64,000 bases of DNA. Source: a virus. The position numbers were made by a program, and so were the translations under genes. How positions within the stretch are numbered: position 1 is the stretch's first letter; every line of letters starts with the position of its first letter. The stretch spans positions 40,254-104,253 of IMG/VR virus record IMGVR_UViG_3300007102_000044. One strand, 5' to 3'. The notes beneath the pieces are model-generated. The model did no database searches. It was not told the origin of the DNA and was given only the letters and a program-made list of their open reading frames with translations. Of this stretch, positions 18,765-64,000 are shown in pieces.

Positions 18765-18993
18765 TTGAATCCTCTTTAAATTCTATCTTTATATAACCTT
18801 CAATGTCATAAGCACAATAATAATCTCTATTCATTATATCACCCGTTGACCAATCGCCAACTTCAGCACCGTTACATTCATAATCAGGCATTTCATAATT
18901 CATATATTTTATATCGCCACGATATATAACCATATATTCACCAGATTCTTTTGGTCTACAACCTTTGTTAAATTTTATCATATCTATCACCAT
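18757..18993 (-). CDS. hypothetical protein (DUF551-like)
   Basis: PKESGEYMV motif. Confidence 0.5.
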   Translation of the reverse strand: MVIDMIKFNKGCRPKESGEYMVIYRGDIKYMNYEMPDYECNGAEVGDWSTGDIMNRDYYCAYDIEGYIKIEFKEDSNE

Positions 18994-20126
18994 ATAAAAT
19001 TGATGAAATCATATTCATTGTCATATGGTATTTGGAAACTTGACAGCATATTGTAATAAACATTTTCTGGAATCGTTTTACCAGTTGTTCTACTTCTTAC
19101 AGTATTTCTGTCTTTTATAACACTCAAAGGGGTCATAAAAACATGCATAACTCTACCATATTTCAATGGAAATTTGTTAAACTTCTTCTGTCTAGTTTTG
19201 AAACTGAGATTTGTTTCATCAATGATAACATTTTTAGCATCTGTGATATACTCTCTGTAAAGTTCTTCACATCTTTCATTAACTGCATCATGGTCAACAC
19301 TATCCCATATTACATTATAACTTGGAACTTCCATATAACCATCTTTAACAATCATGTGATTATTGTCTATATAATAATCTCTCATAATATTATCTCTGGC
19401 ATGGACTGTGTATTCATAATGTTTCACAAAATCTTCTGTGTATGTTGATTTACCAGAACATGGAAGACCAACATTCATAATTACAAGATTCTTGTATGCA
19501 TGAATATTCTTATCTTTCGTTTCTTCAGCAGTATTAAAATGTGAAAAAATATACTCTTCGTATACATCATGAGCAATTTCCATAGGCGCATCTGTGATAC
19601 GTCCGTAATGGTCATATTCAGCAAACTTCACAATTTTTCTAAGAGTGGATTCAGACTTATAAAACTTTTCATAAACCTTTCTACCCGTTTTCTTCTTATT
19701 ATCACTGCTATTAAACTGATAAATCAAGTGATGATTATTAATAATTCTAAGAACTTCAATAATCTGTGAACGACTCAAATTAAACACATCAAGTTTGATA
19801 TATTCAATACAAGCTATTGTACTGTAATTCCAGTGATTCTTAAACATTGCTCTTTCTTTATCATCAATCAATTCTTTAGTAAAACATTTACCATAGTCAT
19901 GAAAGAGTCCAGCAATAACAAGTTCAATTGGCGCATTATCCTGAAGTGCGTTATTCACGACCATCATTGTATGTGTAAATATATCACATTCCAAATGATG
20001 TTTATTCACTTTCCAATCTTTATAACTGTAGTATGTGTGGTCAACATCTTTAAGTTGTCTCACATATTCAAACCCTTCGTCAGAGTTCAAAAAATCCTCT
20101 ATAATTTCATAATTGCTTCTATTCAT
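18987..20126 (-). CDS. HD-domain + P-loop polynucleotide kinase (HD-Pnk-like)
   Basis: HH.E...HT, GLFHDYGK, NHH, DHYGR; GLPCSGKST, IIDETNL, RNTVR. Confidence 0.8.
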   Translation of the reverse strand: MNRSNYEIIEDFLNSDEGFEYVRQLKDVDHTYYSYKDWKVNKHHLECDIFTHTMMVVNNALQDNAPIELVIAGLFHDYGKCFTKELIDDKERAMFKNHWNYSTIACIEYIKLDVFNLSRSQIIEVLRIINNHHLIYQFNSSDNKKKTGRKVYEKFYKSESTLRKIVKFAEYDHYGRITDAPMEIAHDVYEEYIFSHFNTAEETKDKNIHAYKNLVIMNVGLPCSGKSTYTEDFVKHYEYTVHARDNIMRDYYIDNNHMIVKDGYMEVPSYNVIWDSVDHDAVNERCEELYREYITDAKNVIIDETNLSFKTRQKKFNKFPLKYGRVMHVFMTPLSVIKDRNTVRSRTTGKTIPENVYYNMLSSFQIPYDNEYDFINFIW

Positions 20127-20360: not shown

Positions 20361-20600
20361 TTAATCTATAAATTTCATAGCCGTATAAACATATTTTCCA
20401 TCATACCATCTTTTTTCAAGCTCATATCTAACGGTAACTTTCTCAAACCAACGTGTTTCAGATTTAGTATTATCCCAATATTCCACAATAGTAACAGGAA
20501 AAAAGGCAAAAAATGTTTTATCAATTATTTTTGCACTATAAACATTAGGATTGTCAAATGGGTCTTTTTCAGTATTTAATTTCAATCTCATGACAACCAC
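20361..20600 (-). CDS. hypothetical protein
   Basis: 79 aa. Confidence 0.55.
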   Translation of the reverse strand: MVVMRLKLNTEKDPFDNPNVYSAKIIDKTFFAFFPVTIVEYWDNTKSETRWFEKVTVRYELEKRWYDGKYVYTAMKFID

Positions 20601-21706
20601 AATTCCTTGTCACTTTTATATACTCTTCTAAGCATTTTAAAAATACCTGATGTAATATCCATTCCTTTTCTATAGCTGAATATCAATCCTGTATATTCTA
20701 TACCCATATCCTTAATTAGTAAAGCAAATTTTTTGTCATCTGTAACAATATCTGGATATGTCTCACAGATACCCTCATAGACATTCTTAATCTGTTTATA
20801 AGTCTTATGGAATCTATCCTGAATCACTGAAACTTTTGTTTTATATTCATTATATTCATCATACATTTCAAGTGATTTATAAATAGATACAATATCATCA
20901 ACTGAACCACTTTCAACACTGTCAAAAACATTCTTAAACAGGATATTTGATTTAAGTCTATGTCTTACAAGATACCACTTTGTTTTAATCTTAAGAATAT
21001 CCCTAACTTCACCATCAATATAGTGATATAGTACATATCCCTCAATACCTTCTCTTTCTCTCGTTTCTTCAATAAAAGAATCAAGTTTACTCAGTTTGAA
21101 TGTTGGATTGTTGAATTGAACGCCATATGTACCATCAATTGTATTTCTACAAGCAAGAAGTTTAAGTTCCTCTTTTCTATAGTTTATCACAATTCTATTA
21201 TCTGGTGAAATATATTCAAACATTGGAGTCATACCACAATTAAAATATGATTTAATATGACTGATTAGTTTTTGACCATCATCGGTGTTATCAATATATT
21301 TTTGAGCATTCTTAGCAACATCTGAATAGAACGATTTCTTTGACCTGAGTTTAACGTTTCCATTAACCATAATAGGATATATCAAAGAACCGTCTAACTT
21401 GTCACAGGGAAGAAAATAGCCGTCCTCATACTGTCTTAATGTGTTTATATGAGTGTATTCATTTTCATTGATATTAAAAAACTTGTGAAATGGTCTTGCA
21501 ACACATTCACCCTTATCATTGAAAACAATCCCTCTGAATTCTCTTGCAAGGTCTGAATCAAATGTATCCTCAAATGCCACATTATAGAAAAATGAATAGA
21601 ATGTTTCACCATCCACAATTTCAGTTTTCATACAGAATTCATCCTTTTCTTCAGATAATTTTTTAAAGTCTTCAAACGTATATTCTTTATCTTTAATTTT
21701 TATCAT
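20588..21706 (-). CDS. rnlA: RNA ligase 1
   Basis: REFRGI, RPFHKFFN, KLDGSL, FEYISPDNRIV, EGYV, KIKTKWY. Confidence 0.9.
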   Translation of the reverse strand: MIKIKDKEYTFEDFKKLSEEKDEFCMKTEIVDGETFYSFFYNVAFEDTFDSDLAREFRGIVFNDKGECVARPFHKFFNINENEYTHINTLRQYEDGYFLPCDKLDGSLIYPIMVNGNVKLRSKKSFYSDVAKNAQKYIDNTDDGQKLISHIKSYFNCGMTPMFEYISPDNRIVINYRKEELKLLACRNTIDGTYGVQFNNPTFKLSKLDSFIEETREREGIEGYVLYHYIDGEVRDILKIKTKWYLVRHRLKSNILFKNVFDSVESGSVDDIVSIYKSLEMYDEYNEYKTKVSVIQDRFHKTYKQIKNVYEGICETYPDIVTDDKKFALLIKDMGIEYTGLIFSYRKGMDITSGIFKMLRRVYKSDKELWLS

Positions 21707-23723: not shown

Positions 23724-23969
23724 TTATTTTTTCACAGTCATGAAATTACCTATAGCACCACCCAACAAATAACCAATTATGGTTAATATGTCCTGATTGA
23801 TTGTAGCCGTTACAGCTAATGTTGTAGAACCCAACCATGTAAGCTGTATACCTAACCCTGTTATTAATACAGCATAAAGTTTTTCTGATGCCACCGCCTT
23901 TATATTTAAATTTCTGAAAAATACAAAAGCTAATTGTGTTAATAGTATTATAAAAAAATTATTCATCAT
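23724..23969 (-). CDS. small multi-pass membrane protein (DUF5698-like)
   Basis: Three hydrophobic helices, GYLLGGAIG. Confidence 0.6.
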   Translation of the reverse strand: MMNNFFIILLTQLAFVFFRNLNIKAVASEKLYAVLITGLGIQLTWLGSTTLAVTATINQDILTIIGYLLGGAIGNFMTVKK

Positions 23970-24108
23970 CTAATGGACAATCTTTATGAAGTTCATCTGG
24001 ATTCACTTCAAACCCTTCATACTCACATTCATGATAACCTTTATCAATCATAATACAACCATTACATTCACCACAAGTGTTAATAATCTCTTTATATATT
24101 TTGGACAT
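23959..24108 (-). CDS. small Cys-rich protein
   Basis: CGECNGC..C..CPL; AGAGGT SD before MSKIY. Confidence 0.55.
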   Translation of the reverse strand: MSKIYKEIINTCGECNGCIMIDKGYHECEYEGFEVNPDELHKDCPLDDE

Positions 24109-40114: not shown

Positions 40115-40999
40115 TTATATTTCAAATCCTTTACTATCAGTCTCATAAGCTGGAACATGAGCGGATAAATATTTAAACACGCCCATGTAATTAATCTTAG
40201 TACGACCATTATTTTTATTATCATAATACATATACATAATGTTGTCAAATAGTTTTTTAGGAATTGTTTTAGAACTCAGTTCAACAAGTTTCCTATTCCT
40301 AATAAAATTTTTCTTCAGGTCATGTTTCTTCACATACTCTTTTATACCTTCATGATATTCAGATTTGACTTTCTTATTCATCTGTTTCTGTCTATCTGGT
40401 AATAGAAATATATTATCAGGACTATGCATATTTGGCACACCGTCATCGGAATCACCAATCAGATACATTTCATTCAGATATGCATAAGGGTCATCACAGA
40501 CGATAAATTCATCTTTCATGTAATTATACTGTCTTACATTCTTATATTTTTGAAGCTGTTGAAAGTCTTTATCTCTGGATATAATAACTATATCATCAAA
40601 TTCATTATGCAACTCTTCAACAAGCGCACCTATTACATCATCACCTTCAGCCTTTTTAACCTTTACAACATTATAAGGAAAATATTTATCAAGTGCTGTA
40701 AGGATATTATCCATTGACTCTTTCATAAGTTCATATGTGAGCGGGTCTTCCTTTTTCTTTTGATTACGTTTATATTTGTAATACTCATAGAAATCATACC
40801 GCCATGAACCATCATCACAACAGACAACAAATTCATCGATTGGTAAAAACTTAGCTATATACTGCTTAATATGAGTCATAACAATGTAAGCATGATAATC
40901 CATTTTATCATCATGTGCTATAGTCTTTTCATTTTTTACCGCACCATGCCAATCTGAATGAGCAATAGCACTAAAGTCAAGTAATACTATTCTTTTCAA
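40115..40999 (-). CDS. rnh: T4-type RNase H / 5'-3' flap exonuclease
   Basis: LLDFS, WR...Y..YK..R, EGDDVIG, SRDKDFQQL, GDSDDGVPN. Confidence 0.92.
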   Translation of the reverse strand: MKRIVLLDFSAIAHSDWHGAVKNEKTIAHDDKMDYHAYIVMTHIKQYIAKFLPIDEFVVCCDDGSWRYDFYEYYKYKRNQKKKEDPLTYELMKESMDNILTALDKYFPYNVVKVKKAEGDDVIGALVEELHNEFDDIVIISRDKDFQQLQKYKNVRQYNYMKDEFIVCDDPYAYLNEMYLIGDSDDGVPNMHSPDNIFLLPDRQKQMNKKVKSEYHEGIKEYVKKHDLKKNFIRNRKLVELSSKTIPKKLFDNIMYMYYDNKNNGRTKINYMGVFKYLSAHVPAYETDSKGFEI

Positions 41000-41002
41000 T
41001 TT

Positions 41003-42115
41003 TTATCCCACCTCTTTAAGCTTATCAAAGAAATATCTTTTAGCTTTATTTTGAATATATTTACCAATATGTTTCATTTCTAAACCAGATTCAGAAATTA
41101 CATCAGCTTCTTCAATTCTAATATCGTTTACAACCCATCTAATATAATCACCAATTTGTTTAATGTCAATATCATTTCCAATACCAAATATTTGTTGAAT
41201 ACCTTGTTCCATTCTATCTTCAGTACAATATGTTTCAATGAACTCTGTAATATTTTTCATTTGTTCAATGTCGATATTTGATACTCTTGTTTTCTTAGAT
41301 TTTTGAGGGGTTTTAGTATGTTTATCACCCTTTGTTTTAAAGATAAACCTTTCATTTTTATACCATGCAATCCAGACAATACCTTCACCAATTGTCATTG
41401 GAAGTTCGACATTATCATGGTCAGCAACAAAAGATGCAACGGGGCAATTTTCTTCTACCTCAAGAGTCTTTTCATCCATGTATTCTTGACAAGCTTCAAC
41501 ATTATTAATATTGAAAACAAATTCATAATTTGTGAATTGTTTAATATTGAACATCCGAATTGTGTTATATTTGTCAAGATGCTGAAAACATGTATTGAAC
41601 ATTTTTTCATCTATCCAACGTGACACAGTATTTCCATCTTCTATAGTGGTCATTTTCATATTGAATACCATTAAAAACTTATCGAGACTGTTCACAGCAA
41701 CACCATTTTGAATACCTTTACCAGTCCATTCACCATATATAGTAAATATTTCTTTTGGTTTAACTATATTAAGGTCTGTAAAAGTTTGCCTAATCTCTCT
41801 GAATGTTTCATAATTTGCAATTACATAATCTTCAAAGTTTGCATTACCACTTTTAATCTTTACATCATTGTCAGGGCTGATTTCAACTAGGATATTTTCT
41901 TTAGACATTCCAATAACCACCCCATCAGGATGTATAGAAATACCAGCGTTTGTACCATGCACTTTCGGGCTTCCTATTACTTTAACATCAGGATATTCAG
42001 CTGGTGAATAAATGATTGGATAACCATTCTCATCCATCCCTTGAAAATCCATACACTTCTTTATATTACTATAGAAATCTCTAAATTTTGGTGTTTTACC
42101 ATATTTGAGCATCAT
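41003..42115 (-). CDS. rnlB: RNA ligase 2-like
   Basis: KVHGTN, YGEW.GKGIQ, FN, GEGIVW, FKTK. Confidence 0.8.
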   Translation of the reverse strand: MMLKYGKTPKFRDFYSNIKKCMDFQGMDENGYPIIYSPAEYPDVKVIGSPKVHGTNAGISIHPDGVVIGMSKENILVEISPDNDVKIKSGNANFEDYVIANYETFREIRQTFTDLNIVKPKEIFTIYGEWTGKGIQNGVAVNSLDKFLMVFNMKMTTIEDGNTVSRWIDEKMFNTCFQHLDKYNTIRMFNIKQFTNYEFVFNINNVEACQEYMDEKTLEVEENCPVASFVADHDNVELPMTIGEGIVWIAWYKNERFIFKTKGDKHTKTPQKSKKTRVSNIDIEQMKNITEFIETYCTEDRMEQGIQQIFGIGNDIDIKQIGDYIRWVVNDIRIEEADVISESGLEMKHIGKYIQNKAKRYFFDKLKEVG

Positions 42116-62511: not shown

Positions 62512-62522
62512 TTTTTAAAATA

Positions 62523-62611
62523 CAGAGGGTGTGGGATTCGAACCCACGAACCGAATTAACGGTTACTGGTTTTCAAGACCAGCTCCATAAACCAAACTCG
62601 GACAACCCTCT
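62523..62611 (-). tRNA. tRNA-Ser(UGA)
   Basis: Cloverleaf, long variable arm, loop CUUGAAA, G73, no CCA. Confidence 0.92.
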
Positions 62612-62615
62612 AAAA

Positions 62616-62688
62616 CAGAGGATGATGGATTCGAACCATCGACCTCTTGAACCAAAATCAAGCGTTCTACCAACTGAACTAATCCCCT
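62616..62688 (-). tRNA. tRNA-Gln(UUG)
   Basis: Stem CUUGA/UCAAG, loop UUUUGGU, GGUUCGAAUCC, G73, no CCA. Confidence 0.85.
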
Positions 62689-62693
62689 AAAAA

Positions 62694-62767
62694 TAGCGGG
62701 TATTGGATTTGAACCAATGACACCCAGATAATGACTCTGGTGAGCTACCAAACTGCTCTAACCCGCA
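62694..62767 (-). tRNA. fMet-like tRNA(CAU) with aberrant anticodon arm
   Basis: UGCGGG acceptor with 1:72 mismatch, initiator-type D arm; loop GUCAUUA; no CCA. Confidence 0.8.
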
Positions 62768-62773
62768 ATAAAA

Positions 62774-62848
62774 AGTTCCATACGGGATTTGAACCCGTGT
62801 CAATAGGTTGAAAACCTATTATCCTAGACCCGACTAGACGAATGGAAC
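62774..62848 (-). tRNA. tRNA-Glu(UUC)
   Basis: Stem AUAGG/CCUAU, loop UUUUCAA; U73; no CCA. Confidence 0.88.
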
Positions 62849-62857
62849 ATATTTAAA

Positions 62858-62930
62858 CTCCCTGAGTAGGACTTGAACCTACAACCTAACGGTTAACAGC
62901 CGTTTGCTCTGCCTATTGAGCTATCAGGGA
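62858..62930 (-). tRNA. tRNA-Asn(GUU)
   Basis: Stem AACGG/CCGUU, loop CUGUUAA, G73, no CCA. Confidence 0.93.
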
Positions 62931-62943
62931 TTAAATTTTATAA

Positions 62944-62972
62944 ACTATAATACATTGTATTTATCTTGTCAA
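62944..62972 (-). promoter_or_regulatory. dual promoter for tRNA cluster
   Basis: TTGACA-17-TATAGT with GATAAATA (62958-62965) nested in the spacer. Confidence 0.75.
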
Positions 62973-62990: not shown

Positions 62991-63509
62991 TTAAACTTTA
63001 CTCTTAATCATTTCTAATGTAGTTTTTCCATTTGGAAGTTCTCTGTTTTTATAAACATCATCAAATTCATTTTTGCTTATAGCATCTTTCACAGTATCTT
63101 TAGCAACTTTGAAAACTTTATCAATGTTTTTCATAAGAGCCTTTGAATCCTTTGATGTAGATTTTCTAACATTTATCTTTTTTCTACCAAAAGCAAGATG
63201 TTTGTCAGTAGGTGTAATATACATACTATTTGCGAGAAACTCTATAACATAACCTTTTGATGTAAGTCTTACTGCAAAATGAAGACTCATTGGGTCATTA
63301 TTAAAAATGCCATTAGCCCATTCTGTTTTATCTTTACCAAGAAGCAGTCTAACGTAAACATCACTTGAACCAAGTGTTCCAGTTGAAAGACTTACCTTAC
63401 TTTTTGGAAAATATTTATAACCAATCTTTTCAATTTCAGCCATGTAAGCATCTGGTTTTTCCATCCCTTCTACTTGTTCTGTTAATGTTTGTGTCCATTC
63501 GTTTTTCAT
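62991..63509 (-). CDS. putative internal head protein
   Basis: WTQTLTE leader; late promoter upstream. Confidence 0.55.
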   Translation of the reverse strand: MKNEWTQTLTEQVEGMEKPDAYMAEIEKIGYKYFPKSKVSLSTGTLGSSDVYVRLLLGKDKTEWANGIFNNDPMSLHFAVRLTSKGYVIEFLANSMYITPTDKHLAFGRKKINVRKSTSKDSKALMKNIDKVFKVAKDTVKDAISKNEFDDVYKNRELPNGKTTLEMIKSKV

Positions 63510-63568: not shown

Positions 63569-63597
63569 TACTATATACTATAAATTTGAGGTTGTCA

Positions 63598-64000
63598 ATG
63601 TTTAATTATACAAGTGATAATAAATTTAAGTTAATTTTTGCACATAATGATTTTTTCAATTCTGCATTTGAATTTAACTTACAGGATTTAACGTTCCCTG
63701 ATATAACTATAGGGGTTGCTGAACAGCCCACACCAATGAAAACATTATATCATTCGGGTGATAGTGTTGAAATTAGTGATATGAGTTTCACTATATTGAT
63801 TGATGAAGAGTATGATTCATATGTGAATATTTTGAATTGGATGTTTGGGGCTGTCAATTATAAGGATTCAACAACAAAGAATGTATTTAGTGATGCAACA
63901 TTGATGATTATGAGTAATAAAGGAAATGTATTGAAAACATTTAAGTTATATGATATATTCCCTTATAACGTATCACCACCAGCATTAACATATGTGTCTG
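63598..64000 (+). CDS. gp3: tail tube terminator / tail completion protein, 5' partial
   Basis: GAGGT SD; FTILIDEEY.SY..I.NWM, ATL.I.SN, F.LYDIFP; open to edge. Confidence 0.75.
   Translation, partial: MFNYTSDNKFKLIFAHNDFFNSAFEFNLQDLTFPDITIGVAEQPTPMKTLYHSGDSVEISDMSFTILIDEEYDSYVNILNWMFGAVNYKDSTTKNVFSDATLMIMSNKGNVLKTFKLYDIFPYNVSPPALTYVS

Follow-up and report, generated by a model that had tools for sequence, protein, structure and literature searches.

An initiator-derived tRNA with a remodelled anticodon arm in a T4-like phage, and a possible four-base start signal on late messages

A T4-like phage carries a gene for an initiator-derived tRNA(CAU) in which four canonical features of the anticodon arm of a start tRNA are changed, U at position 37 among them, while the stem pair that is functionally needed is preserved. 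The best explanation, to which we give a probability of about one half, is that the tRNA works as an initiator for the phage and recognises, on late mRNAs, a start signal of four bases. The evidence comes from the identity elements and fold of the tRNA, from the recurrence of its odd features in other viruses, and from the base that precedes the start codons (-1) of the late and early genes of the same phage.

The DNA analysed, here called the window, is a stretch of 64,000 nucleotides (positions 40,254 to 104,253) of the IMG/VR record IMGVR_UViG_3300007102_000044, which is 130.5 kb long, has 30% GC and carries direct terminal repeats. The gene content is T4-like (a DnaB-like helicase, UvsX, gp46/47, the gp55 late sigma factor and a tail tube), with the virion module, comprising portal, major head protein, scaffold, baseplate wedge, TerL, sheath and tube, coded on the plus strand. 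No close relative of the phage was found: the best match of gp47/SbcD is only 37% identical and the best cultured match about 31–33% identical, megablast against GenBank phages gave no match, a 172-aa ORF neighbouring the tRNA genes has no relatives in IMG/VR, and a search of metagenome contigs with the D-arm pattern and the tail-tube protein found nothing. The features with which we are concerned are these:

62522..62930, minus strand: array of five tRNAs, Asn-GUU, Glu-UUC, Met-CAU, Gln-UUG and Ser-UGA (ARAGORN, Rfam)
62694..62767, minus strand: initiator-like tRNA(CAU) gene (ARAGORN, Rfam RF00005, MFE fold)
62724..62740, minus strand: its rewired anticodon arm (direct reading, Rfam structure line, fold)
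62944..62972, minus strand: candidate sigma-70-type promoter, TTGACA-17 nt-TATAGT, 11/12 matches (consensus match only)
63597..64000, plus strand: start of the tail-tube gene, ATG at 63598-63600 and the -1 A at 63597 (PHROG tail tube match)

The five tRNA genes of the array are separated by spacers of 2–9 nt, and the candidate promoter ends about 14 nt ahead of the first of them; a late-promoter-like box, GATAAATA, lies at 62958-62965, inside the spacer of this promoter. A second candidate promoter with identical hexamers (TTGACA-17-TATAGT, 11/12) is found at 63570-63598 on the minus strand, ahead of the 172-aa ORF (62991-63509), and GATAAATA boxes are close to both sites. The virion (late) module on the plus strand begins with the tail-tube gene. 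Apart from Met-CAU, all four tRNAs of the array have ordinary loops with a purine at 37; in tRNA-Gln(UUG) (62616-62688, minus strand) the loop is UUUUGGU, that is, G37, while E. coli tRNA-Gln has A37. A sixth phage tRNA, Leu-UAA, lies elsewhere in the genome, outside the array. Among the genes of the phage, neither a peptide deformylase nor a formyltransferase was found.

ARAGORN calls the gene tRNA-Met (cat) at 62693-62768, and Infernal with Rfam RF00005 aligns it at 62767..62694 over the full 71-position model (50.9 bits, E 6.9e-10), flagging 1:72 as the only non-standard pair. The acceptor stem opens with U1·U72 and continues with six Watson-Crick pairs (G2:C71, C3:G70, G4:C69, G5:C68 onward); U8 and A9 precede a D arm with the stem GAGC/GCUC, which includes A11:U24, and the loop AGUUUGGUA; the variable loop is GUGUC, the T arm AUUGG-UUCAAAU-CCAAU and the discriminator A73, and CCA is not encoded. 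The direct reading and Infernal thus bear out the fMet-like acceptor, D and T arms and the 1:72 mismatch that the first-pass annotation had noticed. It had also described a stem CCAGA/UCUGG lacking the three G-C pairs and a loop G32-U-CAU-U37-A, and it was correct in these details, on the minus strand, 62767..62694: the stem occupies 62740-62736 / 62728-62724, with A29:U41, G30:C40 and A31:U39, and the loop consists of G32 (62735), U33, C34-A35-U36 (62733-62731), U37 (62730) and A38 (62729). What the description had omitted is that G30:C40 is retained and that all three of these stem pairs have purine:pyrimidine polarity. The MFE fold is the exact cloverleaf (-24.6 kcal/mol, 50% of the ensemble, z = -2.8 versus shuffles), and the bases of the tertiary contacts, U8, A14, G18, G19, U54, U55, C56 and A58, are all present.

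The assignment to the initiator family rests on the identity elements. The CAU anticodon stands in a 7-nt loop after U33, there is no Watson-Crick pair at 1:72 (U1·U72), and G2:C71, C3:G70, A11:U24 and A73 are all in place; the 1:72 mismatch is a formylation determinant and an EF-Tu antideterminant, and 2:71, 3:70 and 11:24 are determinants for the formyltransferase. The three consecutive G:C pairs of initiators (29:41, 30:40, 31:39) are A:U / G:C / A:U here, and the canonical loop C32-U-CAU-A37-A38 has instead G32 and U37; since both of these hallmarks are missing, we name the gene initiator-derived and not a canonical initiator; to that extent the first-pass annotation, which had seen an initiator-like tRNA(CAU) whose anticodon arm is rewired, is supported. 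Position 37 is nearly always a purine across tRNAs, and few known RNA elements are as conserved as the initiator anticodon arm. The gene is 76% identical to the fully canonical phage-borne initiator of Acinetobacter phage MD-2021a and shares 77–80% identity with initiator-like genes of other phages; against E. coli genomes, blastn found no more than marginal matches (E ~0.6), to tRNA-Met genes present in 136 of 5,426 genomes, and these are uninformative for class.

The three kinds of CAU tRNA are indistinguishable to ARAGORN, and the other phage tRNAs read A/U-rich codons, so that a supply for AUA would fit. It is nevertheless most improbable that the gene makes an elongator Met tRNA, a tRNA-Ile2 that carries lysidine and reads AUA codons, or a decoy RNA with no part in translation; the 1:72 mismatch and A11:U24 mark initiators, not elongators, and nothing speaks for a decoy. 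An elongator tRNA-Met, which has a Watson-Crick 1:72, a pyrimidine11:purine24 and A37, was rejected on U·U, A11:U24 and U37, and tRNA-Ile2 was rejected on U37, G4:C69 and G5:C68. Two rules of general background bear on these rejections: t6A, carried by elongator Met and Ile tRNAs and used by E. coli IleRS, is impossible on U37, and E. coli TilS recognises C4:G69/C5:G68, whereas G4:C69/G5:C68 is the Met/fMet pattern.

The anticodon stem speaks to the capacity to initiate. In the E. coli initiator the middle pair G30:C40, or even G30 alone, is sufficient, and the stem variants 1st-AU, 3rd-AU, au/GC/gu and au/gu/au sustain growth (PMC5389676). In the phage tRNA, G30:C40 is the only G:C kept of the three, and the other two are now compensated A:U pairs with the purine on the 5' side. 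That the essential pair alone has been kept at 30% GC, with two-sided changes at the other pairs, argues for selection for a working initiator and not for decay, and by analogy with the E. coli variants the phage tRNA probably acts as an initiator.

Features of this arm recur in other viruses. A scan of IMG/VR for initiator-type tRNAs with a CCAG/CUGG stem returned more than 120 viral contigs and 104 unique sequences, 66% of which have the canonical loop, the others varying at 32, 37 and 38; the complete CCAGA/UCUGG stem is present in 13 viral contigs. Across 185,579 species genomes the CCAGA/UCUGG pattern occurs at 15 places, mostly in elongator or archaeal bodies, and those of the matches that have initiator-like bodies are only on short MAG contigs, which we suspect to be viral. 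The exact 17-nt arm has 20 matches in IMG/VR, none of them in an ARAGORN-called tRNA, and these were taken as chance. One of them, L013:2120-2195 (IMGVR_UViG_3300045988_132442), has tRNA-like hairpins with the identical arm, CCAGA-GUCAUUA-UCUGG, and a non-canonical T loop; it lies directly upstream of a five-tRNA array, is not called as a tRNA by ARAGORN or Rfam, and represents either chance or a degenerate tRNA-like element. In phAPEC8 and about 60 related Phapecoctavirus records, a gene labelled 'tRNA-Pseudo-CAT' or tRNA-OTHER (L007:1561-1639) is an initiator-like tRNA; its anticodon arm is CCAGU-UUCAUAU-GCUGG, its T arm is that of the window tRNA, and it is probably functional and mislabelled.

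We defined the U37 class by an initiator-type body, G30..UCAU-U37..C40 and the UUCAAAU T loop. Scanned for this pattern, IMG/VR yielded 56 contigs with 41 unique sequences, and the bodies are almost all of initiator type; the window tRNA conforms to the pattern, and within the 56-contig set G32 is unique to it. The loops of the class are CUCAUUA (with A31:U39) or U/CUCAUUC (with G31:C39), and the carriers span many unrelated phage lineages, from 25 to 66% GC. Cultured phages with a U37 initiator-like tRNA are FelixO1, the phiEa21-4 group (Ounavirinae) and the group of the T4-like Aeromonas phage CC2; in Kolesnikvirus (the phiEa21-4 group) the arm is constant in 36 of 36 records compared, and the two differences found are both in the T loop. 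FelixO1 has two CAU tRNAs, of which the initiator-like one (record 23952-24028; L329-L333) has the stem CAUGU/GCAUG (U29:A41, G30:C40, U31·G39) and the loop CUCAUUA (U37). In free tRNA, G29:C41 is the partner of A37 in a base triple; U37 does not covary with the loss of this pair, the listed U37 tRNAs having A:U at 29:41 in about 29 cases, G:C in about 20 and U:A in 6. G32 is rare and is otherwise seen only opposite A38 or C38 (L072, L231, L111), and this pattern in the sequences suggests that a 32-38 pair is kept in G32 tRNAs. A literature search returned no description of natural U37 initiators and no comment on the U37 of FelixO1, phiEa21-4 or CC2.

If U37 reads the message, the base to examine is the one at -1. 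Genes were called throughout the phage genome by a simple rule based on ORFs and Shine-Dalgarno sites, whose choice of start is blind to positions -1 to -4, and the main -1 counts leave out starts within 3 nt of the upstream gene, so as to cover genes separated from it by at least 4 nt. A stands at -1 in 41 of all 47 plus-strand (virion/late) genes. After filtering, 28 of 33 late genes (~85%) have A and 4 have T, against 36 with A and 51 with T among 111 minus-strand (replication/early) genes, a difference in A(-1) with a Fisher p of 8.5e-8. Within the late-gene leaders -1 is the most informative of the positions from -12 to -1 (0.78 bit), and the strand base skew predicts the opposite of the late-gene A(-1) excess. 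At -2, where pairing with A38 would call for U, the late genes have mostly A, so that the pairing would end at four bases. The minus-strand genes that have a late-promoter-like box (5 A, 4 T and 1 C at -1) are too few to be informative. The most strongly signalled late genes (for example G000 5569, 10609, 110899 and 119622) have a near-identical leader, AAAGGAGAAATA(T/A)TAA followed by ATG, in which an in-frame TAA directly abuts the start codon.

The same script was applied to other phages. In T4, which has no initiator-like tRNA, A(-1) is found in 10 of 22 late genes (45%) and in 30% of early genes (p = 0.21), and the late genes of the window phage differ from those of T4 (p = 0.003); in Cronus, which is T4-like and has A37 in a canonical loop, late A(-1) is 33%. 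Two U37 phages show high values, FelixO1 with A(-1) in about 69% of plus-strand genes and phiEa21-4 with 59% A and only 7% T, and since they are related they count as a single lineage of evidence. Aeromonas CC2, also a U37 phage, has no A(-1) excess, with 36–47% A equally on both strands, and among pooled short IMG/VR loci around A37, G37 and U37 tRNAs the -1 trends are weak and non-significant. By annotated starts, 61% of T4 late genes already have A at -1, so that the late A(-1) is partly a general T4-like habit, older than any tRNA; the bias comes partly also from stop-start overlaps. It may predate the tRNA, which would then have adapted to the leaders and not the reverse.

Work in E. coli provides a basis for such a reading. 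There, A37 of tRNAfMet can pair with U at mRNA position -1, and the A37U change is tolerated and raises the translation of reporters and of native proteins that have the complementary -1 base, the -1 effect of position 37 being modest in size (PMC10018350). In the P site A37 is released and stacks beside U36 (PMC2528185). We propose that host RNA polymerase would transcribe the five tRNAs from the array's own sigma-70-type promoter, that the host CCA-adding enzyme would complete the 3' end, that host MetRS would charge the tRNA through the CAU anticodon and A73, and that the host formyltransferase would act on it by way of the 1:72 mismatch, G2:C71, C3:G70 and A11:U24. IF2 would then deliver it to the 30S P site, where G30:C40 alone would suffice to pass the initiator checkpoint. 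On the ribosome, U37 would pair with -1 of the mRNA, and the start signal would be read as four bases, A-AUG; the preference of the early genes for U at -1 would fit the host-type A37 initiator, and the phage tRNA would tilt initiation to the late phage mRNAs. G32 opposite A38 may retain the 32-38 pair, by which the stem of initiator tRNAs is extended, and the A:U pairs at 29:41 and 31:39 may reflect AT pressure (30% GC) plus selection for pairing. Nucleases directed against the canonical initiator arm could also be less effective on an arm altered in this way, the two roles being compatible.

That the pairing of U37 with A(-1) is the selected function is a tentative claim, somewhat short of even odds, but it is the most likely specific function of the tRNA. 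A fuller picture, in which the pairing opens a private initiation channel, with the U37 tRNA reading the A-AUG of the virion genes, the early genes keeping U-AUG, the late proteins gaining timing or priority and the tRNA being invisible to nucleases as well, is speculative and rather doubtful.

Nucleases could also account for the arm by themselves, if a host or a resident element cut the cell's own initiator in the anticodon arm to halt infection and the phage tRNA were a nuclease-proof replacement whose G32, U37, U39, A29:U41 and A31:U39 go unrecognised. The two precedents that the first-pass annotation had invoked are both in the literature: in several phyla there are VapC toxins that cut tRNAfMet at A38/C39, the enteric enzyme cleaving the anticodon arm between these two bases (PMC4105405), and the escape of phage tRNAs from anticodon nucleases through loop changes has been published as a hypothesis (PMC10264068). 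The window tRNA departs from the universal bacterial initiator in its loop and also at the base 3' of the VapC cut, position 39 (C39 to U39), with both loop flanks altered too; among viral initiator-like tRNAs with an A29:U41 stem, the loop is non-canonical in about one third (at 32, 37, 38), and initiator-type bodies with the au/GC/au stem were found only in viral or in the short, suspectedly viral MAG contigs. The phage also encodes an HD-kinase and Rnl1-like RNA repair pair and an Rnl2-like ligase. The pair consists of a 379-aa protein (18987-20126, minus strand), which has an HD domain at its N-terminus and an AAA_33 kinase domain at its C-terminus, beside a 372-aa RNA ligase of the T4 Rnl1 type (20588-21706, minus strand), and it resembles a tRNA repair cassette for the healing and sealing of RNA ends, of HD-Pnk type and not of T4 Pnkp type; the Rnl2-like second ligase (41003-42115, minus strand) matches PF09414 at 29.3 bits, barely above the cut-off. 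T4 uses a comparable RNA repair kit against anticodon nucleases, but the pair shows only that the phage lineage is equipped against RNA breakage. Evasion would leave the ordinary loops of the other four array tRNAs to be accounted for, and taken alone it explains neither the frequent U at 37 nor the late-gene A(-1); we judge it unlikely, if far from negligible.

The arm could instead be neutral, a supplementary initiator having drifted under AT pressure with compensation in the stem and tolerated changes in the loop. A genome of 30% GC is the right setting for this, the essential pair has been kept and the dispensable ones lost as under minimal-constraint drift (PMC5389676), and E. coli tolerates both A37U and A37G (PMC10018350). 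However, the AT content is left unchanged by C32 to G and A37 to U, both transversions, U37 recurs in many unrelated phage lineages (25–66% GC) and is constant within Kolesnikvirus, and the -1 match of the late genes is strong, all of which makes neutrality distinctly unlikely. Still less is to be said for a relic without function or for a loop that is an error of assembly. The Rfam score is the lowest of the five array tRNAs (50.9 bits), and the similar phAPEC8-type gene bears the GenBank label 'tRNA-Pseudo-CAT', but the stems are perfect, with two-sided compensation, intact tertiary bases and a cloverleaf as the MFE fold, and the same odd features are present in independent isolates of cultured phages. 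The decaying gene that the first-pass annotation had entertained fails on the same grounds: all four stems pair, both lost G:C pairs have changed on both sides, the tertiary bases are kept, a candidate promoter stands ahead of the array, and several groups of cultured phages stably retain U37 initiator-like tRNAs. A relic or an error is thus very improbable, and the tRNA(CAU) gene is very probably real, intact and initiator-derived.

Should U37 indeed pair with the A(-1) of late genes, the working initiator that we favour would be a natural phage means of biasing the host ribosome to the phage's own late messages, and a natural case of a principle so far demonstrated only with engineered E. 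coli tRNAs. It would also provide a new reason for phages to carry tRNA genes, beside codon supply and nuclease evasion. The U37 change is common to many phages, the well-studied FelixO1, phiEa21-4 and CC2 included, and for annotation it matters that such genes are labelled plain tRNA-Met or pseudo-tRNA, or are missed altogether.

The phage tRNA resembles several known systems and departs from each of them: (i) With the E. coli tRNAfMet of the metZWV/metY type it shares CAU, a 1:72 mismatch, G2:C71, C3:G70, G4:C69, A11:U24, A73 and G30:C40, as well as the D loop and the UUCAAAU T loop, but it has A:U at 29:41 and 31:39, G32 for C32 and U37 for A37, and its mismatch is U·U where the E. coli type has C·A. 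(ii) It is like the 3GC variants of Shetty et al. 2017 (PMC5389676), and the au/GC/GC initiators of alpha-proteobacteria and mycoplasmas, in the loss of the first or third G:C or both, in polarity and in G30, while the exact au/GC/au stem is not among the mutants of that study. (iii) Like the phage tRNAs of van den Berg et al. 2023 (PMC10264068), its loop departs from the cellular norm at or beside a known cleavage site; phages of VapC-LT2 hosts are in that study mostly without a tRNA-fMet, whereas the window phage carries an initiator-like one. (iv) The cultured U37 phages have in common with it the initiator body, G30:C40, U37 and A38, and CC2 has the identical stem CCAGA/UCUGG, but their position 32 is C or U where the window tRNA has G32, and the bodies are about 77–78% identical. 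(v) The engineered tRNAfMet A37U (Hollerer and Jeschek 2023, PMC10018350) has the same U37 beside CAU and the same expected preference for A (or G) at -1, whereas the phage tRNA is natural, combines U37 with G32 and an au/GC/au stem, and belongs to a phage whose late gene set carries the matching base.
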